DNA of 64,000 nt from an uncultured Bacteroidales bacterium. Its GTDB lineage: Bacteria > Bacteroidota > Bacteroidia > Bacteroidales > B18-G4. This document shows positions 5,275 through 33,293 of the stretch, piece after piece. A program made the translations under genes and the position numbers. The stretch is taken from positions 2,645-66,644 of the forward strand of contig CAZDWF010000002.1 of the NCBI GenBank assembly GCA_964508895.1, given 5' to 3'. Each line of letters opens with the position of its first letter. Positions within the stretch are counted from its first letter, which is position 1. Under the pieces are notes generated by a model that worked only from the letters and a program-made list of their open reading frames with translations, was not told where the DNA came from and did not search any database.

Positions 5275-5283
5275 ATTCATAAT

Positions 5284-9746: not shown

Positions 9747-9785
9747 TGTTTAGCCATTAGTGTTTAGTAATATTATTGATTATAT
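9744..9785. repeat. Heptad array TAGNNNN
   Basis: Units: tagtgtt tagccat tagtgtt tagtaat attattg attatat. The first TAG is the ligase stop codon. Confidence 0.75.
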
Positions 9786-9905
9786 TTGATCTGGTATTTT
9801 GTTGATCATTTATTAATTCTATAAGCACTCAATAATAATAGATTATTAGCTCACTGCCAATACCCCAATAACTATCTGTTAAAATCGAACATAAACATCA
9901 ATATT

Positions 9906-10529
9906 ATGAAAAAATTAATTCTAATTCTCGCTTTGGTACTTTATTTTGCACCAACAGCTTTCAGTCAAAATGTGACAAATATATTTAACTTAAGCAGCTG
10001 TACCTGGTACGGACTGGATTTTTCAAAGGTCAAACTGATAGGTTCTGAAGGATTTAATGATACCCAGGCCATCAAAGATCAGTTTTTTAGTTCCTGGAAT
10101 TACCTGGTACTTAATGAACCTGAAAAATATAACATCGGAAAAGCTTTTAATAAACAAAATGTAGATTATTACCTCGATGTTATTAATGAAAGGAACAAGT
10201 TGCCTGAGATAGATGATCTGGTTACAGCTGACAATAATTACAGTATTTCTGAGGATGAAGTGAAATCAATAATTAGTGAGTATAGATCTGAGGGTAAATC
10301 AGGTATGGGAATAGTTTTCATTATGGAATCCTTTAATAAATATATAGAGGAAGGGACCATGTGGGTTACTTTTTTTGATATAGAAAGCAGAAAGGTTTTA
10401 TTTGCTGATAAACTTTCAGGAAAAGCAGGTGGCTTTGGTTTCAGGAATTATTGGGCTAAAACATATTATAATGTAATAAAGGAAGTTGAGAAAAAGAAAT
10501 ACAAACAGTGGAGAAAGCAATTTGAGTAA
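9906..10529 (+). CDS. Secreted hypothetical protein, copy A
   Basis: Signal peptide MKKLILILALVLYFAPTAFSQ. No recognisable catalytic motif. Confidence 0.6.
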   Translation: MKKLILILALVLYFAPTAFSQNVTNIFNLSSCTWYGLDFSKVKLIGSEGFNDTQAIKDQFFSSWNYLVLNEPEKYNIGKAFNKQNVDYYLDVINERNKLPEIDDLVTADNNYSISEDEVKSIISEYRSEGKSGMGIVFIMESFNKYIEEGTMWVTFFDIESRKVLFADKLSGKAGGFGFRNYWAKTYYNVIKEVEKKKYKQWRKQFE

Positions 10530-10534
10530 AAAAG

Positions 10535-10570
10535 AAAAGGCTGTCTTGAAATAAATCAGGACAGCCTTTT
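10535..10570. terminator. Bidirectional hairpin between convergent genes
   Basis: Sequence aaaaggctgtc-ttgaaataaatca-ggacagcctttt. A/T runs flank it on both sides. Confidence 0.6.
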
Positions 10571-10582
10571 TATTACTATTCT

Positions 10583-11030
10583 TTAATATTTGTCAGGATA
10601 GGGTATTCGGAGTAAAAATCCAAAACTAACAATGATCCCTGATAGATCCAATTCTGACCTGTTGGCTGTCCACCCATTGTACGTGTCAACATCCATTGAA
10701 CCCATCATGTAGTCAACAGAGAAAACAAAATTAGCGGATTTCCCAACAGATATAGTAGGGCCAAATGTATAACCAAGAAAACTGTCAAACTTCACGTCAT
10801 TGTCATCAGTAAAACCACCATCTGGTGCCCAGGTGAAGCTTCCGAACATAGGGCCTCCATGCATGCCAATTGTAAAAACAGTAGCAGGTCTGAAACGTAC
10901 AGCTATATCTCCTCTGTATGTGGGCCCGTAAAAGGCATTGTTATATAGGAATCCACCGCCTCCTGTTATCTCAATAAATACAATTGAAGTGTTGATAGAA
11001 ACACCAAAATTCATGTGTGGTGTATATGAA
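10583..11030 (-). pseudogene. 5'-truncated copy of the beta-rich secreted protein gene (13199-13846), cut at the duplication junction
   Basis: Translation is identical to the C-terminal 143 aa of 13199-13846. Identity ends at the junction near 11031. No signal peptide or native start remains. Confidence 0.8.
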
Positions 11031-11066
11031 GAGATGCAATTAAAGATAAACTTGAAAAGGTGAAAG

Positions 11067-12362
11067 ATGAGTAATATGTTTCCAAAAATTGAATATCAGA
11101 GTCGTGATAACATCTCTGATTATCAAAATGAAAGATTGCCGGAGTTTTTAAGCTATTTGCAAAATAATTCAACATTTTATAAAAAGCATTTCAGGAAATA
11201 TAAAGTTGATATTTTGAAAATAAAAAGTATTTCAGATCTTTCTATAATTCCTGCTACTACTAAAGATGATCTGTATAAGTTTAATCAGGATTTTATTTGC
11301 GTGCCAGCTGAAAAAATCATAGATATTGTTACAACTTCAGGAACACTGGGTGATCCGGTTACTTTTGTGATGACAGACAAAGACCTTGATAGGCTAGCAT
11401 ACAATGAATACGTTTCCTTCTTATGTGCCGGAGGCAGTAAAGATGATATTTACCAGCTGATGACTACTATCGACAGAAGGTTTATGGCAGGATTGGCATA
11501 TTTCCTGGGCGCAAGGAAACTTGGTGCAGGTATTGTTCGCGTAGGAAATGGCATGCCTGAGCTGCAATGGGATACTATAAACAGAGTAAAACCAAATTCA
11601 TTTATTACAGTTCCTTCATTTTTACTTAAGCTGATTGAATGGGCAGAGGAAAATGGAATAGATTATAAATCTGCTTCTGTTGAAAAGGCCATTTGTATTG
11701 GTGAACCCTTGAGAAACCCGGATTTTTCGTTGACAACACTTGGAGAAAAGATCAAAGAAAAATGGGATATTAAACTATACTCAACTTATGCATCAACTGA
11801 GATGGCGACCGCATTCACTGAATGTGAATATGCATGTGGTGGTCACCATCATCCTGAATTGATTATCGTTGAATTTCTTGATGAAAATGACAATCCTGTT
11901 AAAGAAGGAGAGGCCGGTGAAGTTACAATCACTACTTTGGGTGTGGAAGGTATACCTTTATTAAGGTTTAAAACAGGAGATATTTGCTATCACTTTAACG
12001 ACCCATGTAAATGTGGTAGAACAACAATGAGGTTAGGACCTGTCATAGGACGTATGAAACAAATGATCAAGTTTAAAGGTACTACTCTTTACCCCCCTGC
12101 ATTGTACGATATATTGGATAATATTCCGGAAATCCGCCATTATGTTGTGGAAGTTTATACTAATGATATAGGAACTGATGAGATAATGATCCGTATTGAT
12201 ACTAAAGAAATGAGTGCTGATTTTGAAAAAAGACTTAAGGACCATTTCAGGGCAAAATTGCGCGTGGCACCAGTAATCAGCTTTGAAAGTCAGAAAGATA
12301 TTGAAAAGATAAAGTTCCCTGAAGAAAATAGAAAAGCTATTAGCTTTATTGATAGAAGGTAG
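11067..12362 (+). CDS. Phenylacetate-CoA ligase-like adenylate-forming enzyme, copy B (identical to 8451-9746)
   Basis: 431 aa, residue-identical to copy A. Offset is exactly 2616 nt. Confidence 0.8.
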   Translation: MSNMFPKIEYQSRDNISDYQNERLPEFLSYLQNNSTFYKKHFRKYKVDILKIKSISDLSIIPATTKDDLYKFNQDFICVPAEKIIDIVTTSGTLGDPVTFVMTDKDLDRLAYNEYVSFLCAGGSKDDIYQLMTTIDRRFMAGLAYFLGARKLGAGIVRVGNGMPELQWDTINRVKPNSFITVPSFLLKLIEWAEENGIDYKSASVEKAICIGEPLRNPDFSLTTLGEKIKEKWDIKLYSTYASTEMATAFTECEYACGGHHHPELIIVEFLDENDNPVKEGEAGEVTITTLGVEGIPLLRFKTGDICYHFNDPCKCGRTTMRLGPVIGRMKQMIKFKGTTLYPPALYDILDNIPEIRHYVVEVYTNDIGTDEIMIRIDTKEMSADFEKRLKDHFRAKLRVAPVISFESQKDIEKIKFPEENRKAISFIDRR

Positions 12363-12401
12363 TGTTTAGCCATTAGTGTTTAGTAATATTATTGATTATA
12401 T
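12360..12401. repeat. Heptad array TAGNNNN (duplicate copy)
   Basis: Identical to 9744-9785 and lies inside duplication copy B. Confidence 0.75.
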
Positions 12402-12521
12402 TTGATCTGGTATTTTGTTGATCATTTATTAATTCTATAAGCACTCAATAATAATAGATTATTAGCTCACTGCCAATACCCCAATAACTATCTGTTAAAA
12501 TCGAACATAAACATCAATATT

Positions 12522-13145
12522 ATGAAAAAATTAATTCTAATTCTCGCTTTGGTACTTTATTTTGCACCAACAGCTTTCAGTCAAAATGTGACAAATATAT
12601 TTAACTTAAGCAGCTGTACCTGGTACGGACTGGATTTTTCAAAGGTCAAACTGATAGGTTCTGAAGGATTTAATGATACCCAGGCCATCAAAGATCAGTT
12701 TTTTAGTTCCTGGAATTACCTGGTACTTAATGAACCTGAAAAATATAACATCGGAAAAGCTTTTAATAAACAAAATGTAGATTATTACCTCGATGTTATT
12801 AATGAAAGGAACAAGTTGCCTGAGATAGATGATCTGGTTACAGCTGACAATAATTACAGTATTTCTGAGGATGAAGTGAAATCAATAATTAGTGAGTATA
12901 GATCTGAGGGTAAATCAGGTATGGGAATAGTTTTCATTATGGAATCCTTTAATAAATATATAGAGGAAGGGACCATGTGGGTTACTTTTTTTGATATAGA
13001 AAGCAGAAAGGTTTTATTTGCTGATAAACTTTCAGGAAAAGCAGGTGGCTTTGGTTTCAGGAATTATTGGGCTAAAACATATTATAATGTAATAAAGGAA
13101 GTTGAGAAAAAGAAATACAAACAGTGGAGAAAGCAATTTGAGTAA
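12522..13145 (+). CDS. Secreted hypothetical protein, copy B (identical to 9906-10529)
   Basis: 207 aa, residue-identical to copy A. Confidence 0.6.
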   Translation: MKKLILILALVLYFAPTAFSQNVTNIFNLSSCTWYGLDFSKVKLIGSEGFNDTQAIKDQFFSSWNYLVLNEPEKYNIGKAFNKQNVDYYLDVINERNKLPEIDDLVTADNNYSISEDEVKSIISEYRSEGKSGMGIVFIMESFNKYIEEGTMWVTFFDIESRKVLFADKLSGKAGGFGFRNYWAKTYYNVIKEVEKKKYKQWRKQFE

Positions 13146-13150
13146 AAAAG

Positions 13151-13186
13151 AAAAGGCTGTCTTGAAATAAATCAGGACAGCCTTTT
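13151..13186. terminator. Bidirectional hairpin (duplicate copy)
   Basis: Identical to 10535-10570. Confidence 0.6.
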
Positions 13187-13198
13187 TATTACTATTCT

Positions 13199-13846
13199 TT
13201 AATATTTGTCAGGATAGGGTATTCGGAGTAAAAATCCAAAACTAACAATGATCCCTGATAGATCCAATTCTGACCTGTTGGCTGTCCACCCATTGTACGT
13301 GTCAACATCCATTGAACCCATCATGTAGTCAACAGAGAAAACAAAATTAGCGGATTTCCCAACAGATATAGTAGGGCCAAATGTATAACCAAGAAAACTG
13401 TCAAACTTCACGTCATTGTCATCAGTAAAACCACCATCTGGTGCCCAGGTGAAGCTTCCGAACATAGGGCCTCCATGCATGCCAATTGTAAAAACAGTAG
13501 CAGGTCTGAAACGTACAGCTATATCTCCTCTGTATGTGGGCCCGTAAAAGGCATTGTTATATAGGAATCCACCGCCTCCTGTTATCTCAATAAATACAAT
13601 TGAAGTGTTGATAGAAACACCAAAATTCATGTGTGGTGTATATGAAGATCCTCCGCTTATCTCATCATATCTTATAGACCAGAAGGTTCCGCTTCCTGTA
13701 TTTGATACCTGGAACCCATCCATGTTAATACTAACCAGGAAGCTGGCCGGACTTACATTCATGATGAAACTAACAGGAGATTGAGCTGAAACAGAATTGA
13801 CAAAAAGAAAGGAACAAATGATAAAAGTGGCAAATAACTTTTTCAT
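13199..13846 (-). CDS. Secreted beta-strand-rich protein, possible outer-membrane beta-barrel
   Basis: Likely start is the ATG at 13846, giving signal peptide MKKLFATFIICSFLFVNSVSAQ. Gly/aromatic-rich alternating pattern. The ORF-track start at 13915 lies in a poly-A/heptad tract. Confidence 0.55.
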   Translation of the reverse strand: MKKLFATFIICSFLFVNSVSAQSPVSFIMNVSPASFLVSINMDGFQVSNTGSGTFWSIRYDEISGGSSYTPHMNFGVSINTSIVFIEITGGGGFLYNNAFYGPTYRGDIAVRFRPATVFTIGMHGGPMFGSFTWAPDGGFTDDNDVKFDSFLGYTFGPTISVGKSANFVFSVDYMMGSMDVDTYNGWTANRSELDLSGIIVSFGFLLRIPYPDKY

Positions 13847-13892
13847 ATCAGATAAATTTGGATTAACAAGTTTTTTATAAAAATAAAAAAAA

Positions 13893-13927
13893 AAGATACA
13901 AGATGCAAGATACAAGATGCAGTTGCA
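13893..13927. repeat. Heptad array AAGATRC
   Basis: Units: aagatac aagatgc aagatac aagatgc agttgca. Lies in a divergent promoter region. Confidence 0.75.
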
Positions 13928-14038
13928 AGTAAATGTTTATATTTTTTATTAAATTTACTGATAGCAAATTCTCCAATTATTTTTACTATTTTTAACACAA
14001 TGGAAGTTGTGAATATTAATTAAATAAAACTTGGAATT

Positions 14039-14647
14039 ATGAAGAAGCTTATAGTTGTATTACTGTGTGTTATTGCATTTGTGTTTAGTTCAAACGCTCA
14101 AAAGGTCAAAGTTAAACAGGGAGATCTCAACTTTTTAAAAGGTCAAACAGAACTACATGTGAAGTTTGTTTACGATAATTTGGGAGTGGGAAAGTTTGAC
14201 AAAGAAGAGGACTATGTTAATAAAAAAGTTAGGGATTATAATAAGAAAGAACCAGGAAGAGGTGATGCCTGGCATAAAGCATGGATTGCTGACAGGGACG
14301 AGCATTATGAAGTAAAATTTGAAGAATTAATGAATGAATACCTTGATAAGATCAACCTCCAGATTGGTAATCATTATACTGATGCAAAGTATACTTTGAT
14401 TTTCGATACTTATTTTATAGAGCCGGGATATAATATTGGTATAAGCAGGAGAAATGCATATATATCTGCTAAAGCCATTTTTGTGGAAACAGCAAACCCT
14501 GATAAAATTTTATGTATCATCGATTTGATCAAGGCTCCCGGAAGAACATACGGCGGTAGTGATTATGACACAGGAGTTCGTATTGGTGAAGCCTATGCAA
14601 AATGTGGTAAAACTTTTGCAGGTTTTATTTTGAAAAAGCTTAAGTAG
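14039..14647 (+). CDS. Secreted hypothetical protein
   Basis: Signal peptide MKKLIVVLLCVIAFVFSSNAQ. No diagnostic motif. Confidence 0.55.
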   Translation: MKKLIVVLLCVIAFVFSSNAQKVKVKQGDLNFLKGQTELHVKFVYDNLGVGKFDKEEDYVNKKVRDYNKKEPGRGDAWHKAWIADRDEHYEVKFEELMNEYLDKINLQIGNHYTDAKYTLIFDTYFIEPGYNIGISRRNAYISAKAIFVETANPDKILCIIDLIKAPGRTYGGSDYDTGVRIGEAYAKCGKTFAGFILKKLK

Positions 14648-14693
14648 TATTTTACTAACTTTGCCACTTCTATTATTTTAAATAGAGGTATTC

Positions 14694-15821
14694 ATGACAG
14701 ATATTGAATTAAAACCTTATTCAGAACAGGAAGTTCCTGAAATAATGAAACGTATTGTTTCGGATGAAAACTTTCCTGTATTGATTCCCTATGCTTTTCC
14801 CGACAGAGAAGTATCTGAAATTGCAGATATTTTACTAAGCTGTAAATCAACAAGAGATTTCCAGAGGAGGTTTATGGCTAATATGATACGATCAATTGTA
14901 CAAAGAAGCTCAACGGATTATACAACCAGCGGAACTGAAAATATTGATCCTGAAAAATCATATCTATATATAGGAAACCACAGGGATATTATTCTCGATT
15001 CAGGAATGTTACAGGTTTTGCTTATTGACCTTGATCTTGAAACCAGCGAAATGTCGATCGGGAAAAACCTGATGGTTAACGATCTTATTTCAGACCTGGG
15101 TAAAGCAAATAAAATGATCCCTGTTGAAAGGAGCGGAACAGCCAGGGAGCTACTGCGATCGTCTTCAGTGCTTTCTAATTATATCAGGAAGTCGGTTACA
15201 GAAAAAGGTATGTCGGTATGGATTGCTCAGAGAAATGGAAGGGCTAAAGACGGAAATGATAGAACTGAAAGTGCCCTTTTAAAAATGCTTAATATGAGTG
15301 GCAAGGGCAGCATTGTTGATGATTTCAAAGACCTGAATATTGTCCCTGTAAGCACATCTTATGAGATAGAACCATGCGATGTTCTTAAGGTTCAGGAAAT
15401 TTATGAGACAACCAAGGGGCAGTATGTGAAAAAACCAGGGGAAGATACTAAGAGTATGGCTACCGGATTAATCCAGCCCAAAGGCAAAATCCATATGAGA
15501 ATTGGTAATGTTATTAATTATAAACTATCTGATATTGATAATAAGAAAAACATCAATGAGAGCTTTAATGCATTATCAGGAATAATTGATAAAGAAATAT
15601 ACAGGAACTATAAGCTATGGCCTTCCAATTATGTTGCATATGATATGCTATTTGGTGAGAGATTTAAAGATCAGTATACTTCTGAGGAAAAATCTTCTTT
15701 CCTGGAATATTATAATGCCAGCCTTGGCAAACTTATTGGAGAAAGAGAAAAGCTATCGGATCACTTCCTGAAAATGTACTCTTTTCCTGTTATCAATAAA
15801 ATTGAATCAGGACTTATTTAA
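14694..15821 (+). CDS. PlsC-family glycerolipid acyltransferase
   Basis: HX4D acyltransferase motif GNHRDIILD and a downstream AQRNGRAKDG block. Confidence 0.65.
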   Translation: MTDIELKPYSEQEVPEIMKRIVSDENFPVLIPYAFPDREVSEIADILLSCKSTRDFQRRFMANMIRSIVQRSSTDYTTSGTENIDPEKSYLYIGNHRDIILDSGMLQVLLIDLDLETSEMSIGKNLMVNDLISDLGKANKMIPVERSGTARELLRSSSVLSNYIRKSVTEKGMSVWIAQRNGRAKDGNDRTESALLKMLNMSGKGSIVDDFKDLNIVPVSTSYEIEPCDVLKVQEIYETTKGQYVKKPGEDTKSMATGLIQPKGKIHMRIGNVINYKLSDIDNKKNINESFNALSGIIDKEIYRNYKLWPSNYVAYDMLFGERFKDQYTSEEKSSFLEYYNASLGKLIGEREKLSDHFLKMYSFPVINKIESGLI

Positions 15822-18149: not shown

Positions 18150-18186
18150 TAACCGCAATAGACGCAAAGGAAGGCGCAATGGACGC
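18150..18186. repeat. Left 37-bp inverted repeat of the GxxExxY cassette
   Basis: The sequence taaccgcaatagacgcaaaggaaggcgcaatggacgc matches the reverse complement of 18578-18614 at 36/37 positions. Confidence 0.85.
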
Positions 18187-18563
18187 TATAGATTTAGTGC
18201 AATACGTCGAACGCCTTGTTTCATAAGTGCAACGTTAAAATTGATAAGTAATCCAAGTTTACAATTTGAGAGTTTCAGATATGTTAAGACTTGAGCTAGA
18301 TGTACATCATTAATAGCCTCAACTGATTTTACTTCGATTACTACTTTATGTTCAACTAATAAATCAACTCTATAGCCAATTTCCATTACTACATTTTCAA
18401 AAACCAAGGGCAATGACTTTTGTTTCTCAACATAGAGGTTTGATTGCTTTAATTTATAAAATAGGCATTCCTCATAAGAGCTTTCAAGTAATCCTGGTCC
18501 TAAAGCTTTATGAATTTCAAGAGCGGCGAAGTATGTTATTCTGGATATTTCATTTTCATTCAT
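18186..18563 (-). CDS. GxxExxY protein (PD-(D/E)XK-fold family typical of 23S rRNA intervening sequences)
   Basis: Signature GPGLLESSYEECL (GxxExxY). About 125 aa from the ATG at 18563. The track start at 18584 is a TTG inside the flanking repeat. Confidence 0.8.
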   Translation of the reverse strand: MNENEISRITYFAALEIHKALGPGLLESSYEECLFYKLKQSNLYVEKQKSLPLVFENVVMEIGYRVDLLVEHKVVIEVKSVEAINDVHLAQVLTYLKLSNCKLGLLINFNVALMKQGVRRIALNL

Positions 18564-18577
18564 ATTATGAACTCTTT

Positions 18578-18614
18578 GCGTCAATTGCGCCTTCCTTTGC
18601 GTCTATTGCGGTTA
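18578..18614. repeat. Right 37-bp inverted repeat of the GxxExxY cassette
   Basis: Sequence gcgtcaattgcgccttcctttgcgtctattgcggtta. Confidence 0.85.
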
Positions 18615-18790
18615 AGTATTTTATCATTACTTTATTATTTTAGTATTAATGTGTTCCGGTAGAACCTGAATCATTTTTAGTATATTATTATAACGTATAA
18701 ATAAACAAGCACTTAAGAAGAAAATTCAGTTATTGATTATTGTGGAATAATGATAGTTTTGTTAGCAATAGGATCAGATCATTGCACGAA

Positions 18791-18886: not shown

Positions 18887-20845
18887 ATGAAAAAACTCGA
18901 TCCAAAACAAAACTTTCTAGCCAGCAAGGAAAAGACCGGATATGTCACCCGAAAAGATGCTACTCAGGATGATTACGATAGGATAGGCTTTATGTCAGGA
19001 CTGGAAGTCCACCAGCAGCTTCTCACTGATGAGAAACTCTTTTGCAGATGCCCGGCAGGACAGTACAACAAAAGCGAAGATTACGACGCAGAGGTAATCC
19101 GTCATATGAGGCCAACACTTAGTGAACTTGGTGAATACGATGGTACTGCTCTTATGGAGTTTAAAACACGTAAAGAAATAATCTACCGGATAAAAAATGA
19201 AACAGCTTGTACCTACGAAGTGGATGACACACCTCCATTTCCTATCGACAGACAGGCCCTGGAGATCGCAATTGAGATAAGTCTTTTATCTAAACTAAAT
19301 ATTGTGGGCGAAGTTCATATAACCCGTAAACAATATCTTGATGGAAGTATCCCAACTGGATTTCAGAGAACAGCAATCATCGGCGTTGAAGGGGAGATTC
19401 CTCTTAAGAATAGGAATATTCGTCTGATACAACTTAGTCTTGAAGAAGATTCATGTCGTGAGATCAGCGATATTGGACATGTGAGAGTATATAAGACGGA
19501 TAGACTTGGTATGCCACTTATTGAAACAGTGACATATCCCGATTGTACAAATCCTGATGAAGTGATGGAAGCCAATAACTATATCCGTTTTTTGAACCGT
19601 TCTACAGGAAAAGTAAGAACAGGAATGGGAGCCGGAAGGGAAGATGTGAATGTAAGTTGTCGAGGAGGATCCAGAGTTGAGATCAAAGGTGTGGCTCACA
19701 CAAAATGGATACCTGAACTTACACATAATGAATGTTTCAGACAGTGGGCATTACTGAATATGAGAGAAGAGCTCAAAGCAAAAGTTAAAGATCCTGAAAA
19801 ATGGAAAATGACTTCTAAAAAGCTTAATCCTCACGCATATAATTTCAGATATAAACCTCTGACAGAAGCCAAAAAGAATGGAGTTAAAGTGTACGCTGTA
19901 AATCTCCCGGGATTCAGAGGTATGCTCTCACATTTTACACAGCCAGGGAAAATGTTTGCCAATGAGATTACAGATCGCCTGAAAGTTATCGCTTGTATTG
20001 AAAAGCCAAATATGACCCATACTGAGGCTTTTAAAGCTGTGATATCTCAAAAAGACTGGCAATCACTTGCTAAAGAGCTGAAGTCAGGGGATGATGATGC
20101 GATGATCGTTTTCTGGGGACCGGAAGATGATATCAAAACAGCACTCGAAACTATTGAAGAGCGCTGCCAGATGGCTTTCAAAGGTATTCCAAATGAAACA
20201 AGAAAATCATTTGAAGACGGCACTACCATATTTGAAAGAGTCCTTCCCGGTGCCGACCGCATGTATCCTGATACAGATTCAGCTCCTATACCTCTGGAAG
20301 ATGAATACATCAAGAAGCTTGAGAAGAATATCCCCGATGATATTATCGACAGGTATAATAAAATGAAGGAATGGGGAATTCCGGAAGATACCTATAACTA
20401 CATATTTTCAAAAAACCATTATCCGTTAATTCTCAGGATAGTGGAAGATCTGAATATAGATCCAAAGTTTGTGGGGAGGTTTTTCGGACAGCTATTAAAA
20501 TTCGTAGAAGGACATTATGTTCCGGCAGAAGAGTTTAACTTTAAGATTATTTATGCATTGTTCAGATATCTCCTGCAGGAAGAAATTGAAGTTGAACTTG
20601 CTGAGAAGATGCTTCCAGTGGTTTATGAAAATCCAAAAATGGATTTCACCTCTGTTCTTACTGTGATCAATTTCAAGAAACTGGATAAAGAACAGATCCT
20701 GAAAAATATTCCTTTCCTGAAAAATAAATTTAATGAGATCGGAAGATCAAAAGAAGATGGAAGGGGAACAAACTGGATCATGGGTGAATTGAGGCCAACC
20801 GCACTGGGTAATATACCTATGAATCAATTGAAAAAAGAAATTTAA
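18887..20845 (+). CDS. gatE: Glu-tRNA(Gln) amidotransferase subunit E (archaeal-type GatE)
   Basis: N-terminal GatB/E signature GLEVHQQL...LFCRCP. About 650 aa, which is GatE size rather than GatB. Followed directly by a GatD-type gene. Start set at the ATG at 18887 (MKKLDPKQ). Confidence 0.8.
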   Translation: MKKLDPKQNFLASKEKTGYVTRKDATQDDYDRIGFMSGLEVHQQLLTDEKLFCRCPAGQYNKSEDYDAEVIRHMRPTLSELGEYDGTALMEFKTRKEIIYRIKNETACTYEVDDTPPFPIDRQALEIAIEISLLSKLNIVGEVHITRKQYLDGSIPTGFQRTAIIGVEGEIPLKNRNIRLIQLSLEEDSCREISDIGHVRVYKTDRLGMPLIETVTYPDCTNPDEVMEANNYIRFLNRSTGKVRTGMGAGREDVNVSCRGGSRVEIKGVAHTKWIPELTHNECFRQWALLNMREELKAKVKDPEKWKMTSKKLNPHAYNFRYKPLTEAKKNGVKVYAVNLPGFRGMLSHFTQPGKMFANEITDRLKVIACIEKPNMTHTEAFKAVISQKDWQSLAKELKSGDDDAMIVFWGPEDDIKTALETIEERCQMAFKGIPNETRKSFEDGTTIFERVLPGADRMYPDTDSAPIPLEDEYIKKLEKNIPDDIIDRYNKMKEWGIPEDTYNYIFSKNHYPLILRIVEDLNIDPKFVGRFFGQLLKFVEGHYVPAEEFNFKIIYALFRYLLQEEIEVELAEKMLPVVYENPKMDFTSVLTVINFKKLDKEQILKNIPFLKNKFNEIGRSKEDGRGTNWIMGELRPTALGNIPMNQLKKEI

Positions 20846-20865
20846 AAAATATAAAACGGATTATC

Positions 20866-22251
20866 ATGAGTGATGATTTTTTCCAGGGATATAAAGGAGA
20901 CGCACTGGAGATCCTAAAGAAATATAATACCAGGGTTTGGGGGCAGGCAGTTGCTGAAACCACACGTGGAACTTTTAAAGGAACTATTTTACCTCGTGCT
21001 GAGAACGATGATGATAAGCACATTGTAATGAAGATCATTACAGGTTACAACGTAGGAATTGACATCCGTACTATTACCTCTATGAAGGAAGAAGGCTACA
21101 AAAAGGCCAACTATAAAATTCCCGAAAAAGAATTTCCAACAACTCCCGGATTACCAGCAGTTAAGCTTTTTGGAACAGGAGGTACTATAGCATCCCGTCT
21201 TGATTATAGAACAGGAGCTGTAATCCCTGCTTTCTCACCAGGAGAGCTATACGGAGCCGTTCCTGAACTGGCAGATATCTGCAATCTGGAAACGGAAAAA
21301 GTGTTTGCGGTGTTTAGTGAAAACATGGGACCAAAGCAGTATATAGAACTCTCAAAAGCTATCGGAAAAGAGATAGAAAACGGCATAGATGGAATTGTAA
21401 TCGGCCATGGAACAGATACCCTTCACCATACAGGAGCTGCACTTACCTTTATGATACAGAATCCACCGGTACCTATTGTTCTTGTAGGATCACAAAGGTC
21501 ATCAGACAGACCCAGTTCCGATGCTGCCCTGAACCTGATGCATGCTATGAATGCTGCAGGAAATTCTGATATTGCAGAGGTGATGGTTTGTATGTTCGGT
21601 CCAACTTCTGATGAATACGGATTGCTCCACAAAGGTACCCGTGTGAGAAAAATGCATTCATCCTACCGCTCCACATTCCGTACTATTGGAGACACTCCGA
21701 TTGCAAGGGTAAACAGGAAAGAGATCATTCCAATCCATAAAAAATACCGCCACAGACGCAAAGACCGCAATGTGAAGATCATGCCTTACTTTAGCGATGA
21801 GGTTACCATGCTTTATTACTATCCGGGAATGAAACCAGACACTATTGATGCGCTGGTTGATGCAGGATACAGGGGTATTATAATAGTAGGAACAGGCCTT
21901 GGTCATGTAAACAAGGAACTCTATCCCGCCATAGAAAGAGCACATGCAAAAGGTGTTCATATGTTTATGACCTTACAGACCATATGGGGCTATGTTCATA
22001 TGTTCGTATACGATACCGGCCGCGACATGATGGCAAAGGGAATCATCCCTACAGGAAATATGCTTCCTGAAGTAGCATGGGTCAAACTTAGCTGGATCCT
22101 TGCCCAGACCGATGATCCTGCAGAGGTAAAACGCATGATGCTAACTCCTGTCAACGATGAGATCACACCAAGAGAACCATATAATGGATATTTGGTTTAT
22201 CAGGGTGGAGTGCCGGAAGTAGAGGAGTTTGTGAGGAATGTGCATAAGTAG
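20866..22251 (+). CDS. gatD: Glu-tRNA(Gln) amidotransferase subunit D (asparaginase-family GatD)
   Basis: Asparaginase motifs FGTGGTIAS and GHGTDTL, with an N-terminal extension typical of GatD. Lies 20 nt downstream of gatE. Confidence 0.8.
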   Translation: MSDDFFQGYKGDALEILKKYNTRVWGQAVAETTRGTFKGTILPRAENDDDKHIVMKIITGYNVGIDIRTITSMKEEGYKKANYKIPEKEFPTTPGLPAVKLFGTGGTIASRLDYRTGAVIPAFSPGELYGAVPELADICNLETEKVFAVFSENMGPKQYIELSKAIGKEIENGIDGIVIGHGTDTLHHTGAALTFMIQNPPVPIVLVGSQRSSDRPSSDAALNLMHAMNAAGNSDIAEVMVCMFGPTSDEYGLLHKGTRVRKMHSSYRSTFRTIGDTPIARVNRKEIIPIHKKYRHRRKDRNVKIMPYFSDEVTMLYYYPGMKPDTIDALVDAGYRGIIIVGTGLGHVNKELYPAIERAHAKGVHMFMTLQTIWGYVHMFVYDTGRDMMAKGIIPTGNMLPEVAWVKLSWILAQTDDPAEVKRMMLTPVNDEITPREPYNGYLVYQGGVPEVEEFVRNVHK

Positions 22252-28047: not shown

Positions 28048-29448
28048 CTATTCTATAATTATCTTTTTACTTACACTCCCTTTTTCAGTTTGAACAACAA
28101 CTATGTAGATTCCTGTCTCCAGATTCAGGCTTATGGATTGGTTTTCATTTCTGTTTAATGAATGTGTAGAAACAGACCTTCCTGTCATATCATGAATACT
28201 CACATTTCCTTTTTGATTTTCAGGATTCTGGATATAGAGAGTTTGGTCTGAGGAATACATTTCGATTGCAATTTCTCCATTTTGGAAATCTTCAACAGAT
28301 CCAATACCGGGATCCTGCTTCCACCATGCTAATTCATTATCACCGGAAGCTGATCCGACAATATCCAGGTTTCCGTCACCATCAATATCGGTGGCATAGA
28401 CCGAGGAAGCATCATTATAATTATTGTCAATGGTATGCCTGGTAAAACTCTCGCTACCATTATTTTTCCACCAGCTTATTGAATTATCATCATTACCGGC
28501 AGCCACAACAATATCCATATCTCCATCCCCATCAATATCAGTTGCCAGAGCAGAACAGGCCCCTCCAAGATCACTCGTTATAAGATGCCCGATAAAGTTA
28601 GGAATACTTGCCCCGTTATTCTCCCACCATTTCACGGAACCACTCCATCCATCTCCCGGGTCGGCACCTAGTATATCCGTATCACCATCCCCATCGATAT
28701 CGATGGCAAAAACAGAGCGGCAAAAAAAGGAATCATCTATGACAATTTTAAAGAAGTTCTCATTACCATCATTGTTTATCCACCATGATGTTTCATTGGT
28801 TCCGAAAGCACCGGACCCCACAACATCTGTATGCCCGTCACCATTGAGGTCAGTTGCAAATACAGACCATGGCCCTCCGAAGGAGTTATCGATCGTATGT
28901 TTTGAAAAGGAAGGGATGGCACCTCCATCATTTTTCCACCAATCGATGGTGTTGTTAAAATAAGAACCTCCTACAACATCTGTATGCTGATCGCCATCCA
29001 CATCTGTCGCATGCACAAAATACGCCCCGGCACAATTATCTGTAATGTAGTGCTTTGTAAAAGAAGGAAAGCCTGTGTTTCCATCATTTCTATACCAGGC
29101 AATTGTGCTATCCAATCCTGTTGCACATAATACATCCATATTACCATCTCCATCAATATCAATTGCAAATACTGAATGTGGACCGCCGGATGTAGTATCA
29201 ATATCATACCTTGTAAATTCCTGGTTCCCGTTATTCCTCCACCAGGAAACAAAACCATTATCATTATTCTCATCTGAAGCAGCCAGAATGTCTGTATGTC
29301 CATCGCCATTCAGGTCTGTTGCGTATACCGAACATATACCGGTATATGTATCAGTAATTTTATGTTTATCAAATGATTGCGAAGCAAGGCCAAGGCTCTG
29401 AAGAACTATAAAAAAGGATATAAAGGCTTTTAGTATAAATCTTTTCAT
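28048..29448 (-). CDS. FG-GAP/VCBS repeat protein with T9SS C-terminal sorting domain
   Basis: Signal peptide from MKRFILKAF. Repeated D.DGDG..D Ca-binding/FG-GAP units. C-terminal beta-sandwich tail (LYIQNP...GIYIVVVQTEKG) typical of type A T9SS CTDs. Confidence 0.8.
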   Translation of the reverse strand: MKRFILKAFISFFIVLQSLGLASQSFDKHKITDTYTGICSVYATDLNGDGHTDILAASDENNDNGFVSWWRNNGNQEFTRYDIDTTSGGPHSVFAIDIDGDGNMDVLCATGLDSTIAWYRNDGNTGFPSFTKHYITDNCAGAYFVHATDVDGDQHTDVVGGSYFNNTIDWWKNDGGAIPSFSKHTIDNSFGGPWSVFATDLNGDGHTDVVGSGAFGTNETSWWINNDGNENFFKIVIDDSFFCRSVFAIDIDGDGDTDILGADPGDGWSGSVKWWENNGASIPNFIGHLITSDLGGACSALATDIDGDGDMDIVVAAGNDDNSISWWKNNGSESFTRHTIDNNYNDASSVYATDIDGDGNLDIVGSASGDNELAWWKQDPGIGSVEDFQNGEIAIEMYSSDQTLYIQNPENQKGNVSIHDMTGRSVSTHSLNRNENQSISLNLETGIYIVVVQTEKGSVSKKIIIE

Positions 29449-29458
29449 GATGCTTTTT

Positions 29459-30892
29459 TTAATGTATCCATATTTTATCACAAACCATTCCTTTATTTGT
29501 CTGTATAGAAACTATATATATGCCTACTTCAGGATGCAGCCTTATCGACTGATTTAAATTTCCATTTAATGTGTATTCCAAAACTGAGCTTCCCTTCACA
29601 TTATAAATACTTATAGTTCCTTTTAGATATTCAGGATTCCGTATATAAAGTGTCTGCTTTGAGTAATATGAACTTATTGCTATTTTATCATATTGAAAAT
29701 CTTCAACAGATCCAATACCAGGCTCTTGTTTCCACCAGGCAATTTCAGAATTATTTGCATCAGAAGCGACGATATCTATATCTCCATCCCCATCAATATC
29801 TGTTGCATATATCGATTCTGAAAATTCGAAATTATCATCAATAGTGTATTTAGTAAATCCCGGTACAGGAGAGGTTTTATCATTTTTCCACCATAAGACA
29901 TCTGAATTCTGATCATTTCCTGCAGTACCAAGCACATCAGTATGGCCATCCCCGTTTACATCGGTTGCATAAACAGCCCATGCACCATCAATGCTTGAAA
30001 TATTATAGCCAGTAAAGCTGGGGTAAAATATATAACTACCATCATTCTTCCACCATTTTATAATACCGTCAAATACCGCAGCACCAACTACATCAGTATA
30101 TCCATCTCCATCCAGGTCTGTTGCATAGACTGATTGGGCTCCATTGAAATCATCATCAATGGTAGTTTTTGAAAAACTTTCAGAACCATCATTTACCCAG
30201 ACGGCAATCTCATTATCATCTCCTGCTGCACCAAATACATCTATATCCCCATCACCTTCCAGGTCTGTTGCATACACTTGTTGTGGGCCGCCAATATTAT
30301 CATCAATAACATGTTTTGTAAATATTACATTTCCATCAATGACACTGTCGTTCTCCCACCAATCAATTGAATTACCCATATCCGATGCGGTGAGCACATC
30401 ACAATCCCCATCACCATCTAAATCGGTTGCATAAACAGAGGTTGGGCTGTTATAACCCGTATCGATGACATGTTGCGTAAAAACTACAACTGTATCATTT
30501 ATAATACTGTCGTTCTCCCACCAGCATACCTGATTAGCCCAAAATGCTGTGCCAAGAACATCGGTATCACCATCTCCGTCAACATCAGTAGCATAAACAG
30601 AACTTGCACCCAGAAAACCAATGGCTATAATATTTTTATGAAAAATAATATTTCCAGGCTTCGAAGTATCTGTTCGCCACCAATTAATATATCCATTTGT
30701 TCCGTTATCAAATGAAGCACCTAAAATATCGTTGAGCCCATCCCCATTCACATCAGCAGCAAATACAGCTGAAGGTTGAGGAAAGCTAGTTGTAACAATA
30801 TGTTTGGTGAAATTTTGAGAGAGAATACTTATGCTCAACAGAAGCATTGATAAGCATAATAATGCTTTAATCGTAGTAAGTTTCATAGGCAA
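29459..30892 (-). CDS. FG-GAP/VCBS repeat protein with T9SS C-terminal sorting domain (paralogue)
   Basis: Same architecture as 28048-29448. C-terminal tail LYIRNP...GIYIVSIQTNKG. Confidence 0.8.
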   Translation of the reverse strand: MPMKLTTIKALLCLSMLLLSISILSQNFTKHIVTTSFPQPSAVFAADVNGDGLNDILGASFDNGTNGYINWWRTDTSKPGNIIFHKNIIAIGFLGASSVYATDVDGDGDTDVLGTAFWANQVCWWENDSIINDTVVVFTQHVIDTGYNSPTSVYATDLDGDGDCDVLTASDMGNSIDWWENDSVIDGNVIFTKHVIDDNIGGPQQVYATDLEGDGDIDVFGAAGDDNEIAVWVNDGSESFSKTTIDDDFNGAQSVYATDLDGDGYTDVVGAAVFDGIIKWWKNDGSYIFYPSFTGYNISSIDGAWAVYATDVNGDGHTDVLGTAGNDQNSDVLWWKNDKTSPVPGFTKYTIDDNFEFSESIYATDIDGDGDIDIVASDANNSEIAWWKQEPGIGSVEDFQYDKIAISSYYSKQTLYIRNPEYLKGTISIYNVKGSSVLEYTLNGNLNQSIRLHPEVGIYIVSIQTNKGMVCDKIWIH

Positions 30893-31042
30893 TAAAATAT
30901 TAGATTCAGGTAAAATTGAATTTACTAAGATAGTTAAAAGAAAGTTGCAAGCCGCAAGTAGTCAGCTTTGCAATCTGAAGCCTTGGTGAAGGATGGCTTG
31001 CATTTTGTTTATTGCTAATTGATTATTATCTTTATTCAAATC

Positions 31043-33088
31043 ATGAAAAAACATCTACTTATCTTCTTCATCCTTTTCTCTCTTTCTGCATATACACAAT
31101 GGGAATGGCAAAATCCACTGCCACAAGGAAATACCATTAAAGCTGTTGAAATAATTGATGCTGATAATATCTGGGCAGTTGGTGATTGCGGAACAGTAAT
31201 TCACACTGAAGATGGTGGTGATTCATGGGAATTGCATTTCCTGGGTACTTATTCGAATTTACGGGATATTGGATTTATAAATAATGTTGGTTTCATATTA
31301 GGTGAAAACGGGGTATTGATGAGAACAATAGACGTAGGATTAAACTGGGAATCTCTTAACGACAGCATAGGTAAAACATTCACATGCATAGAAAAGAATA
31401 GCAATACATTCTGGATCGCAGGATTTGAATTTACTGGTTTTATAAAGAAAACTATGGATAGTGGAAATAGCTGGATGAACAAATCACTTCAATACACTAC
31501 TATAAGTCTCGAGGTCCAATTTGTTAATGACTCGGTAGGATGGATTTTAGGTAATCAAATGTATACAACAACAAATGGAGGAGATTACTGGCAGTTCAGG
31601 TATCATAGCCCTCCTAATAAATACAAAAAGCTTTTCTTTCTTGACGAAAAGAACGGATGGTTCAATGTTTTAGAAACATTGTATCATACTTACGATGGAG
31701 GGACCACCTGGGAAACACAATTCAACCTGGAGTATCATAGTATATTTGACATGTGTTTTATTGATTCTTTAACAGGTTGGCATGTAGGTAATCAAAATTA
31801 TATGCAGGTCTTTGAAACTACAGATGGTGGTGTCAATTGGTATGAAGACTTTTCTTCTGGAACAGGCCGTCTATACACAATTGAAAAATTCAACGATTCC
31901 ATCATATGGTCTGCCGGATCTTTCGGTCAAATGCATATGTCTGTGGATACGGCTGGCTGGATAACAAAAACAAAAGGATCTATTCTTGGTATATCTCAGA
32001 TTTATTTCATTGATCAAAACACTGGTTGGGCAATAAATAATGAACTAATCTTAAAAACAGAGAACAGTGGTCTGGAATGGGATACTATCATATTTGATAA
32101 ATATAACCGGAAAAGTGACATATATTTTTATAACGATCAAAATGGCTGGTTAATTGATTTCTATGGAATCAAAAAAACCGTAAACGGTGGAAATACCTGG
32201 GAGTATATGGATAGTATTTATTTCTTAAATAAGCTTTCATTTATAACTCCCAAATACGGCTGGGCAATAGGAGACTATGGAAAGATTTTTCACACAGAGG
32301 ATTGGGGAAATACCTGGGTAAAGCAAGATATTCAATTGAATCGAAATCTAAATAGCGTTCAGTTCAAATCAATTGAAAAGGGTTGGACAGTTGGCAATAA
32401 TGGTACTATACTTTACACAAAAGATGGAGGAGATAATTGGGAATCACAGATTAGTGCAACAGAAAGTGACCTCATGGATTTATTCTTTGTAAATCTGATA
32501 AATGGATGGGTTGTTGGTGACAATGGAGTAATTCTCAAAACCGAAAATGGAGGTGAATCATGGGAACATCAAAACTCAAATACAAGCAGAAAAATCAGAG
32601 CCGTGCACTTTACAGATCACAATACCGGATGGGCTGTCGGTAATTCTGGTTTAATACTTCATACTATAAATGGCGGAGAAGATTGGATAGAAAAGATATC
32701 TCCATCTAATAATACTTTTTATTGCACACATTTTTTCGATGAAAACATTGGCTGGATTGGTGGGTCGGGTGGAAATATTATATATACTTCAAATGGAGGT
32801 ATTGTTAACACTGAAGATAACCCGACTCAAGATTTTAATCGCGTTTCAATTGTATTTCCCAATCCATTTTCAACTTTTACCCGGATTAAATATTCTTCTG
32901 TTTCGAACTCAAAGATCCATATCCATATTTTCAACTCATCCGGAGGTCTAATACATTCAAATATATCTACTCAGAGCGCAGGCACACATGAATACCACTG
33001 GAATTCCCAAGAGTATCCAGCCGGGATTTATTATTATCGGATTCAAATCAATAATGAATCTTTTGCTGGAAAAATGATAAAATTATAG
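31043..33088 (+). CDS. BNR/Ycf48-like beta-propeller repeat protein with T9SS C-terminal sorting domain
   Basis: Signal peptide MKKHLLIFFILFSLSAYTQ. Many T.DGG..W(E) BNR-like repeats. CTD begins VFPNPF. Confidence 0.75.
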   Translation: MKKHLLIFFILFSLSAYTQWEWQNPLPQGNTIKAVEIIDADNIWAVGDCGTVIHTEDGGDSWELHFLGTYSNLRDIGFINNVGFILGENGVLMRTIDVGLNWESLNDSIGKTFTCIEKNSNTFWIAGFEFTGFIKKTMDSGNSWMNKSLQYTTISLEVQFVNDSVGWILGNQMYTTTNGGDYWQFRYHSPPNKYKKLFFLDEKNGWFNVLETLYHTYDGGTTWETQFNLEYHSIFDMCFIDSLTGWHVGNQNYMQVFETTDGGVNWYEDFSSGTGRLYTIEKFNDSIIWSAGSFGQMHMSVDTAGWITKTKGSILGISQIYFIDQNTGWAINNELILKTENSGLEWDTIIFDKYNRKSDIYFYNDQNGWLIDFYGIKKTVNGGNTWEYMDSIYFLNKLSFITPKYGWAIGDYGKIFHTEDWGNTWVKQDIQLNRNLNSVQFKSIEKGWTVGNNGTILYTKDGGDNWESQISATESDLMDLFFVNLINGWVVGDNGVILKTENGGESWEHQNSNTSRKIRAVHFTDHNTGWAVGNSGLILHTINGGEDWIEKISPSNNTFYCTHFFDENIGWIGGSGGNIIYTSNGGIVNTEDNPTQDFNRVSIVFPNPFSTFTRIKYSSVSNSKIHIHIFNSSGGLIHSNISTQSAGTHEYHWNSQEYPAGIYYYRIQINNESFAGKMIKL

Positions 33089-33105
33089 AATACATTCATA
33101 ATATC

Positions 33106-33123
33106 ACCCCTTCGGGGTTTTGG
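33106..33123 (+). terminator. Short GC hairpin with UUCG loop and T-run
   Basis: The sequence acccc-ttcg-ggggt followed by tttgg lies 18 nt after the stop of 31043-33088. Confidence 0.5.
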
Positions 33124-33190
33124 CTCTCTTATCAATCTTTCATGCAAATTTTGTATCGCTCCTAACGAAGCTGATTATATTTTACACTGA

Positions 33191-33232
33191 ACCCTAACAC
33201 CCAGTACCCAGAGCCTAGAACCAAGAATCCAG
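33191..33232. repeat. Heptad array NACCNAG
   Basis: Units: accctaa cacccag tacccag agcctag aaccaag aatccag. Confidence 0.75.
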
Positions 33233-33293
33233 AAAGAGTGATATTATTTATTCAAACAAATATTCCATATCTTTATAAGAAATCTATCAAATA

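Follow-up and report, generated by a model that had tools for sequence, protein, structure and literature searches.

Why does a chromosome of the Bacteroidota carry the two genes of an amidotransferase that has been described only from archaea? The question was raised by a stretch of 64,000 nucleotides from an uncultured Bacteroidales bacterium (contig CAZDWF010000002.1; the whole 64-kb stretch is called the window below), in which the genes gatE and gatD lie one after the other. The proteins GatD and GatE make up GatDE, a tRNA-dependent amidotransferase that has been stated to occur in archaea only [PMC2811023 (2009), PMC8007984 (2021), PMC8762117, PMC9499178 (2022)]. An earlier note, made from the letters of this DNA alone, had started from the premise that GatDE is generally treated as an archaeal signature, and reviews published up to 2022 do call it “exclusively archaeal” and “an archaeal signature protein.” Judged by its sequences, the pair of the window is a member of the GatDE family by descent, placed in a distinct bacterial clade of this family. 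GatDE is encoded on bacterial chromosomes, in Bacteroidota and in at least seven other bacterial lineages. Hence, the stated archaea-only distribution is wrong.

Family Assignment of GatE and GatD

The coordinates given here are positions in the window, and gatE and gatD are co-directional on its + strand. The reading frame of gatE extends upstream to a TTG at 18740. Translation from the ATG at 18887 gives a protein of 652 amino acids (aa; MKKLDPKQ...) that ends at the stop codon 20843–20845 and matches the homologues, most of which have 652–660 aa. A spacer of 20 nt separates it from gatD (20866–22251, 461 aa). The earlier note had described a 652-aa GatE followed 20 nt later by a GatD, and both open reading frames (ORFs) were present as described, together with the motifs that it had listed (GLEVHQQL, LFCRCP, GTGGTIAS, and HGTDT). 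The features of the operon are the following.

18887..20845, + strand: gatE, kinase/transamidase subunit of a GatDE-type tRNA-dependent amidotransferase (652 aa + stop; NCBIfam equivalogs, PDB matches, motifs)
18887..18970, + strand: GatE N-terminal extension, aa 1–28, typical of the bacterial clade (length statistics, model helix, start of the PDB alignment)
18971..19783, + strand: GatE cradle (catalytic) domain, part 1, aa 29–299 (Pfam GatB_N 1.7e-45, motif alignment)
19784..20146, + strand: GatE-specific AspRS-like (GAD-like) insertion domain, aa ~300–420 (weak Pfam GAD match, model, Foldseek)
20147..20296, + strand: GatE cradle, part 2, aa 421–470, containing the ETR...LPGADRMYPDTD motif (alignment columns without variation in bacterial GatE)
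20297..20842, + strand: helical domain and putatively YqeY-like C-terminal tail of GatE, aa 471–652 (NCBIfam alignment, model)
20866..22251, + strand: gatD, glutaminase/asparaginase subunit supplying ammonia (461 aa + stop; TIGR02153)
20971..21075, + strand: GatD N-terminal domain, aa 36–70, which sets GatD apart from free asparaginases (Pfam PF18195 GatD_N)
21160..22140, + strand: asparaginase-fold core of GatD, N domain aa 99–287 and C domain aa 313–425 (Pfam Asparaginase, Asparaginase_C)

The window GatE passed both GatE models, with 402.5 bits against a cut-off of 319.55 for TIGR00134 and, by a narrow margin, 469.7 bits against 456 for NF003107. All six GatB models failed on it (45–114 bits vs. 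cut-offs of 315–680), the best-scoring of them reaching 113.9 bits against a cut-off of 338. The best sequence matches in the PDB were the archaeal GatE chains 1zq1_C (1.4e-86) and 2d6f_C (2.4e-83). An AlphaFold model of the protein was obtained with a pLDDT (predicted local distance difference test) of 83 and a pTM (predicted template modeling score) of 0.81. Its best fold match was to the archaeal GatE structures, with a target-normalised TM (template modeling) score of 0.78–0.80 over 514–550 aligned columns, and structures of GatB came second (0.5–0.73).

GatD was recognized by TIGR02153 (498.3 bits vs. a cut-off of 324) and by NF003217 (497.4 bits vs. 310). The Pfam domain GatD_N was detected with an E-value of 4.5e-10 (39.2 bits vs. 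a cut-off of 25.7), and the core matched Asparaginase (1.3e-54) and Asparaginase_C (7.5e-33). The best PDB matches were 2d6f_A (3.4e-114) and 1zq1_A (4.6e-114). The motifs GTGGTIAS, GHGTDT, and VRKMH of the core were present, and the Thr nucleophile and the Thr-Asp-Lys residues were the same as those aligned with them in 2d6f_A and 1zq1_A; their catalytic roles were taken from work on the archaeal enzyme (PMC2330236). Type I L-asparaginases (AnsA-like) have the same core fold and the same Thr and Thr-Asp-Lys catalytic residues, and their model TIGR00519 was also passed by the window GatD (374.5 bits vs. a cut-off of 260.5). Nevertheless, the window protein differs from them in carrying GatD_N, in reaching 498 bits on the GatD equivalog and in having gatE 20 nt upstream. 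The family call of the earlier note was thus borne out by the hidden Markov models, the PDB matches and the fold: both proteins cluster with GatE and GatD and not with GatB or ordinary asparaginases.

Domains and Motifs of the Bacterial GatE

The motifs of GatE were analyzed in an alignment of the window protein with 119 GatE representatives, 38 of them bacterial and 81 archaeal. The first part of the cradle contains GLEVHQQL, RKQYLDGSIPTGFQRT, LEEDSCRE, DRLGMPLIE, GKVRTG, REDVNVS, and EIKGV. All of the core motifs common to GatB and GatE (HxQ, DGS..GFQRT, LEED, RxDxNxS, EIKG, ETR, and PG..R.YP.TD) were found in the window GatE and were also kept in all of the bacterial representatives. The LPGADRMYPDTD region in the second part of the cradle aligns with RMYPETD in archaeal GatE and with RYFP[ED]PD in GatB.

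The bacterial proteins have a longer N-terminus: the median number of residues preceding the GxExH motif was 27 in the bacterial representatives vs. 12 in the archaeal ones, about 15 extra residues. The archaeal GatE sequences of the PDB align with the window protein only from residue 29, and aa 6–17 form a confident helix in the AlphaFold model. The short basic loop located by base pair 1:72 of the tRNA reads GKVRTG in the window, GKVRRG in other bacteria and GKVKRG in archaea. This loop has no KMEE-type insertion in the window GatE and is without the 3-10 turn (KMEE) by which GatB reads U1:A72 (PMC2811023).

The insertion region forms an alpha/beta domain in the model and gave weak Foldseek matches to AspRS structures, and the Pfam GAD family matched aa 327–419 with an E-value of 9.8e-4 and 19.8 bits, under its 23.4-bit cut-off. 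It is this insertion of about 120 residues (aa 300–420) that makes GatE longer than GatB. The segment at aa 471–652 is all-helical in the model, with a pLDDT mostly above 90, and the alignments of the NCBIfam GatE models reach aa 651. The tail diverges from that of archaeal GatE, most so in the Bacteroidota, where a conserved Trp precedes [LIM]MG (xW[LIM]MG) and xGN takes the place of [RK]G[RK].

The pair resembles the archaeal enzymes of Methanothermobacter thermautotrophicus (2D6F) and Pyrococcus abyssi (1ZQ1) in its two subunits, its domain architecture, its catalytic motifs and its short basic loop at 1:72. The archaeal GatE differs in its shorter N-terminus and its tail motifs, whereas the window pair has a bacterial host, belongs to a separate clade and is organized as a conserved gatE-gatD operon. 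The amidotransferase known from bacteria is GatCAB. Its GatB is a paralogue of GatE with the same chemistry, and it reads U1:A72 tRNAs, as the window enzyme would be required to do. Unlike GatB, the window GatE lacks the 3-10 turn, has the GatE-specific insertion and fails the GatB models, and an asparaginase-type GatD is found in place of the amidase-type GatA and the GatC of GatCAB.

Host, Distribution, and Selection

The host chromosome is that of a member of the Bacteroidota. Five proteins encoded in the window carry a sorting domain of the type IX secretion system (T9SS), and LptD_2, OstA_2, a peptidase of family S46, methylmalonyl-CoA mutase, and an ECF sigma factor are encoded as well. 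The other annotated genes of the 64 kb are all bacterial, several of them characteristic of Bacteroidota, in keeping with what the earlier note had said of the neighbors. That note had also judged the composition of the pair to be the same as that of its surroundings. This holds for the G+C content at third codon positions (GC3; 0.349 in gatE and 0.385 in gatD, inside the range of 0.25–0.415 of the other long window genes sampled), but not for the overall G+C content, in which the pair is somewhat richer than its surroundings (0.393 in gatE and 0.435 in gatD vs. a window mean of 0.367). Nothing suggests a genomic island at gatE-gatD, and the sole integrase of the window, present as two separate ORFs, is 32 kb distant.

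The window GatE has relatives in at least 120 database clusters at 69–100% identity, the named ones being “GatE [Bacteroidales/Bacteroidota/Lentimicrobium],” and several of these clusters sit on contigs of 1.2–4.1 Mb. Relatives were encoded in at least 521 candidate stretches of species-level genomes (one genome per species). The detailed locus counts refer to the best 80 of these stretches, 66–76% identical to the window GatE, with 10-kb flanks. Almost all of the 80 loci belong to metagenome-assembled genomes (MAGs) of Bacteroidales/Bacteroidota, and two are in records submitted as entire chromosomes (3.73 and 4.60 Mb). Carrier chromosomes that are closed or nearly so include OY760934.1, OY762280.1, JAXHMP010000001.1, and ERZ25042269 ctg13255c. 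gatD adjoins gatE on its 3′ side at 64 of the 80 loci, and most of the exceptions are contig ends. The recurrent neighbors are housekeeping genes (an OstA-like protein, a NUDIX hydrolase, and ValRS) in otherwise variable flanks, and no mobile-element genes were found among the recurrent neighbors of the 80 loci. At about five loci gatE stands alone within 10 kb. L008, L023, L028, L045, L052, and L084 have gatE but no gatD in the 10 kb downstream, so that a minority of the bacterial genomes either have the subunit genes unlinked or are without gatD through loss.

The gatE-gatD order was also observed in Calditrichia, Latescibacteria, and Aminicenantales, and on a bacterial contig of 5.98 Mb. 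In this wider clade, genes for SecA, sigma-70, DnaA, RecO, and RodZ lie beside gatE-gatD. All of the carriers seen are MAGs, and no cultured carrier of bacterial GatDE was identified among them. Three taxonomic labels were odd: the loci L014 and L063 are labeled Acidobacteriota and Thiohalospira, while their GatE proteins are 67–71% identical to the Bacteroidales protein, and P0454 is labeled Clostridiales, its GatE belonging to the wider bacterial clade. Mis-binning or mislabeling of these MAGs is likely.

When the pair was compared with its closest relatives, third codon positions were only 35–45% identical, synonymous sites were saturated and the synonymous rate (dS) was incomputable. The nonsynonymous rate (dN) was 0.07–0.08 for GatD and 0.18–0.22 for GatE. 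This combination of a saturated dS and a low dN indicates strong purifying selection on gatE-gatD, and the pair is on these grounds an old, selected resident of these genomes. Contamination and a very recent transfer, which the earlier note had thought unlikely, are excluded by the native GC3, the megabase-sized bacterial contigs, the housekeeping neighbors and the substitution rates. Its proposed check of the distribution had a twofold outcome: the pair is common in this lineage and is automatically named GatE/GatD (NCBI, JGI), so the existence of the bacterial genes is already public in databases, where annotation pipelines label them as such, but no paper describing or characterizing a bacterial GatDE was found in full-text searches of the literature available without subscription.

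Relationship to the Archaeal GatDE

An exhaustive search of 1.84 billion representative proteins gave 622 clusters at E ≤ 1e-30, and a neighbor-joining tree with 200 bootstraps was calculated from 119 full-length representatives. The tree splits into two halves, bacteria and archaea, in 200 of the 200 bootstraps. The bacterial half consists of the Bacteroidota clade and about 31 further clusters that are 40–55% identical to the window GatE; the named members outside the Bacteroidota, with their relatives, are CSSED10-310, Calditrichia, KSB1, Aminicenantes, Latescibacteria, Krumholzibacteria, and Candidatus Desulfaltia, all of them bacterial. The archaeal half, whose named members belong to the Heimdall-, Hod-, Thor-, and Odinarchaeota, Thermoprotei, and Diapherotrites, is 29–39% identical to the window GatE. 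GatD identities amounted to 76–91% within the Bacteroidota, 64–67% to other bacterial phyla and 45–46% to archaeal GatD. The same hierarchy (Bacteroidota, then other bacterial phyla, then archaea) was obtained for both subunits; GatE and GatD co-evolve as a pair.

The nearest archaeal relatives of the bacterial GatE are the Asgard sequences. The highest archaeal identity (39%) was that of a Heimdall sequence, and the bacteria and the Asgard-type group formed a clan in 185 of the 200 bootstraps. Asgard GatE shares YLDGS[IV]P and YPDTD with the bacterial proteins, and the Heimdall sequence also shares LEEDSCRE; nevertheless, the 200/200 split puts Asgard GatE with the archaea. Some of the shared states, for instance Y...[IL]P, are also present in GatB and may therefore be ancestral and not a sign of common descent. 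“Y..IP,” common to GatB, bacterial GatE and Asgard GatE, looks ancestral, while the polarization of the signature residues by GatB was mixed overall, “EEDS” appearing derived and “P[DE].D” varying within GatB. Rooting was attempted with three fragments of the GatB cradle (197 columns, neighbor-joining), a design prone to long-branch artefacts. The GatB outgroup joined inside the Asgard-type group, and a root between Bacteria and Archaea was recovered in only 19 of the 200 replicates. As far as these trees go, the bacterial GatDE may have been acquired from an Asgard-like archaeon or may be an ancient copy.

GlnRS and tRNA-Gln in the Carrier Genomes

The earlier note had proposed an inventory of glnS, the gene of glutaminyl-tRNA synthetase (GlnRS), and GlnRS was indeed found to coexist with gatE-gatD in carrier genomes. 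A contiguous, co-directional arrangement glnS-gatE-gatD, with glnS directly upstream of gatE, was present at the loci L041 (1708–7840), L027 (62–4891), and L085 (8001–13190), which belong to one Bacteroidota lineage, and on a contig of 75.8 kb. On two of these, L085 and the 75.8-kb contig, glnA is located upstream of glnS at a distance of about 4.4–4.5 kb. Glutamine synthetase and TyrRS are encoded within the 6 kb upstream in L085, a possible “glutamine” supra-operon. In the MAG Cfx2-01 (GCA_013377115.1), glnS is on the contig L086 and gatE-gatD on the contig L021. A search with a carrier GlnRS placed none of the 120 matches listed on the GatE-bearing megabase contigs, a result that says nothing either way. 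Similarly, no GatB was found by tblastn in 1.3 Mb of carrier sequence (80 loci and the window), which is uninformative, about 0.4 being expected.

The tRNA-Gln(CUG) of two carrier genomes (L026 and L086) has U1:A72 and A73. Genes for this tRNA were located at 11660–11733 in L086 (MAG Cfx2-01) and at 4394–4467 in the near-identical contig L087, about 2 kb downstream of glnS. The interval between glnS and the tRNA gene is occupied by an ORF of 137 aa and by the gene of a 456-aa protein, which has the Pfam domains LapB zinc ribbon, AAA_25, and ChlI and which we take to be RadA/Sms-like.

According to a survey of 547 genera (2014), all six cultured Bacteroidales included have glnS and asnS, with gatCAB = 0 (PMC4206432, Table S1). 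The idea that Bacteroides possess GatCAB was rejected on the basis of the same table, which gives gatCAB = 0 for all six. Since the cultured Bacteroidales thus have glnS and asnS and lack gatCAB, GatDE is an addition to a type of genome that normally uses both direct routes. Some Bacteroidales are without asnA, asnB, and gatCAB (PMC4206432). The carriers also differ in two respects from the hosts of archaeal GatDE, which have A1:U72 in tRNA-Gln where the carriers have U1:A72, and among which GlnRS is absent, no archaeon having this enzyme according to a review (PMC9499178).

Proposed Function and Alternatives

The earlier note had named two options for a functional pair, an unusual tRNA-dependent route to Gln and a recruited function, to which the presence of GlnRS beside the pair is added here. 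The mechanism of the archaeal GatDE (PMC2330236) was taken as the default. The GatD dimer would hydrolyze glutamine or asparagine and release ammonia. GatE would bind the mischarged tRNA, phosphorylate the side-chain carboxyl of the attached glutamate and amidate this activated glutamate with the ammonia from GatD, giving Gln-tRNA(Gln). In this host, the substrate would be a bacterial-type tRNA-Gln with U1:A72 and a small D-loop, not one with A1:U72, and the pathway would constitute a second route to Gln-tRNA beside GlnRS, independent of free glutamine. The operon gatE-gatD may accordingly be read as one for a functional Glu-tRNA(Gln) amidotransferase running beside GlnRS, and in our judgment this reading has an even chance of being correct. 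It is favored by the linkage to glnS and by the precedent of the family, all characterized GatDE enzymes being specific for Glu-tRNA(Gln) (PMC2330236, PMC9499178). The family membership, the intact catalytic motifs, the conserved operon with its housekeeping neighbors, the purifying selection and the short basic loop of GatE type by base pair 1:72 also count in its favor. We infer that the GatDE of the window would be enzymatically active and would use Glu-tRNA(Gln) as its substrate.

Several points weigh against a Glu-tRNA(Gln) amidotransferase. The enzyme looks dispensable for making Gln-tRNA, given that GlnRS is present in the carriers and that the cultured Bacteroidales manage without an amidotransferase. 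The supply of Glu-tRNA(Gln) would depend on a putative non-discriminating GluRS of the host; discriminating and non-discriminating enzymes are told apart by the residue equivalent to Arg358 of the T. thermophilus GluRS. The tRNA-Gln of the carriers has U1:A72 and not A1:U72, the identity element of archaeal GatDE on tRNA-Gln (PMC2330236); the U1:A72 of the host tRNA argues for an altered recognition and not against membership of the GatDE family by descent. Furthermore, the Pfam GatB_Yqey domain was undetected in the window GatE while being detected in the GatE of other bacterial phyla. The tail motif GxxAxGx has been implicated in Gln/Asn discrimination, and our pattern for it matched none of the 38 bacterial representatives and 26 of the 81 archaeal ones; its absence in bacteria is weak evidence, since so few archaeal proteins match.

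The principal alternative is that the bacterial GatDE acts as an Asp-tRNA(Asn) or dual Asp/Glu amidotransferase, serving the tRNA-dependent synthesis of asparagine as GatCAB does elsewhere. We regard this as possible but rather unlikely. Where bacteria with both GlnRS and AsnRS have retained an amidotransferase, the role proposed for it is the synthesis of asparagine on the tRNA (PMC4206432), and asnA, asnB, and gatCAB are all missing from some Bacteroidales. Moreover, it is by the first base pair and positions 19/20 of the D-loop, and not by the amino acid, that archaeal GatDE excludes tRNA-Asn (PMC2330236). Both tRNA-Asn and tRNA-Gln have U1:A72 in bacteria, so that in such a host the first base pair cannot serve as a discriminator. 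The bacterial clade has also not retained the tail motif linked to Gln/Asn discrimination, the tail of the Bacteroidota having diverged further, but its patchy occurrence even in archaea (26/81) makes this absence a weak argument. A GatDE that acts on Asp-tRNA(Asn) is not known, and the sole recurrent functional linkage found was to glnS/glnA, not to aspS, asnS, or asn genes. A broader proposal would make GatDE an old, largely vertically inherited bacterial lineage, retuned to U1:A72 and serving as a dual Asp/Glu enzyme or as the sole amide route. The bacterial clade does span phyla of the FCB group, Aminicenantes, and others, and it branches beside the sampled archaeal diversity, but we consider the proposal as a whole to be unlikely.

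A recruitment of the pair outside translation, for the amidation of another carboxylate or of a metabolite derived from aminoacyl-tRNA, or as a regulated glutaminase/asparaginase, seems improbable. An amidotransferase is unnecessary for decoding where GlnRS, and in the cultured relatives AsnRS, are present, and the divergence of the Bacteroidota tail is such that the Pfam YqeY model misses it. Nevertheless, the full tRNA-binding architecture (cradle, AspRS-like insertion, helical and tail domains) and all of the kinase/transamidase motifs are kept, GatE and GatD co-evolve, and no biosynthetic gene cluster recurs around the pair at the 80 loci. Mis-assembled or mis-binned archaeal DNA, or a recent transfer without function, was considered as well, given that every carrier seen is a MAG and that a few taxonomic labels look wrong (L014, L063, and P0454). 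This explanation is very improbable. Genes for T9SS cargo, LptD, and OstA lie on the same contiguous 64 kb, and carrier contigs of 3.7–6.0 Mb have SecA, sigma-70, DnaA, and RecO beside the operon. The native GC3, the strong purifying selection and the occurrence in at least 521 candidate stretches of species-level genomes also speak against it, as do a bacterial clade of its own (200/200) and the low identity to archaeal GatE (31–39%) and GatD (45–46%). A Glu-tRNA(Gln) amidotransferase beside GlnRS is thus the reading that we prefer.

Surroundings of the Operon in the Window

Directly upstream of gatE, at 18186–18584, a “GxxExxY” protein of the PD-(D/E)XK nuclease superfamily is encoded (PDDEXK_3, 1.1e-38). 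Its gene is unrelated to the operon, as it was found beside gatE at none of the 80 related loci. Downstream of gatD, the segment 22286–22382 shows a weak periodicity, with 3.5 copies of TACTTTAACT and 5.4 copies of ATTCCCT (Tandem Repeats Finder, TRF, scores of 49 and 34). The earlier note had placed the pair between a GxxExxY gene and a heptad tract; the former was confirmed, while the latter amounts only to a weak low-complexity periodicity (TRF 34–49) lying outside the feature. Scans for promoters and terminators around the operon gave counts not above those of shuffled sequence, and no terminator-like hairpin was found after gatD.

At a greater distance, the split tyrosine integrase, with Arm-DNA-binding and SAM-like domains at 54149–54913 and the catalytic domain at 54966–55508, is probably a frameshifted pseudogene. 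A toxin-like protein of 2087 aa, with SpvB, FG-GAP, TcdB-middle, and RHS repeats, is encoded beside it (window 54149–62382). Two adjacent pairs of paralogous T9SS cargo genes occupy 28048–35339, one pair for two 477-aa FG-GAP proteins (28048–30892) and the other for two BNR/YCF48-like proteins of about 685 aa (31019–35339). The region 8–15821 contains a cluster resembling those for lipid or secondary-metabolite biosynthesis, with a 1258-aa fusion of MMPL, acyltransferase and methyltransferase, two oxidoreductases of the FAD/amine-oxidase type, an AAT-family acyltransferase, AMP-binding enzymes and another acyltransferase. At 8413–13648 there is a perfect tandem duplication with a unit of 2,616 bp (8413–11028 and 11029–13644, 100% identical, the identity continuing for 4 nt further), each copy of which contains the gene of a 431-aa AMP-binding enzyme and an ORF of 207 aa without a Pfam match. 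This duplication is either very recent or an artefact of the assembly.

Significance of a Bacterial GatDE

GatDE is a textbook case of a translation enzyme specific to one domain of life. The practical value of the finding is limited, since no carrier in culture was identified, the function is a predicted one and automatic annotation had already named the genes. For the biology of the family, the carriers would represent a natural experiment, in which an amidotransferase built for A1:U72 operates with U1:A72 tRNAs. They also pose a question of redundancy, namely why a second pathway is maintained by strong selection in organisms already equipped with GlnRS. The link between the bacterial sequences and the Asgard-type ones matters for interdomain gene flow. 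Furthermore, arguments about the synthesis of Gln-tRNA in the last common ancestor rest on the distribution of GatDE (PMC9499178). If the bacterial GatDE were an old, largely vertically inherited lineage, GatDE could no longer count as an archaeal signature protein, and it would have to be asked anew which amidotransferases the last universal common ancestor possessed.

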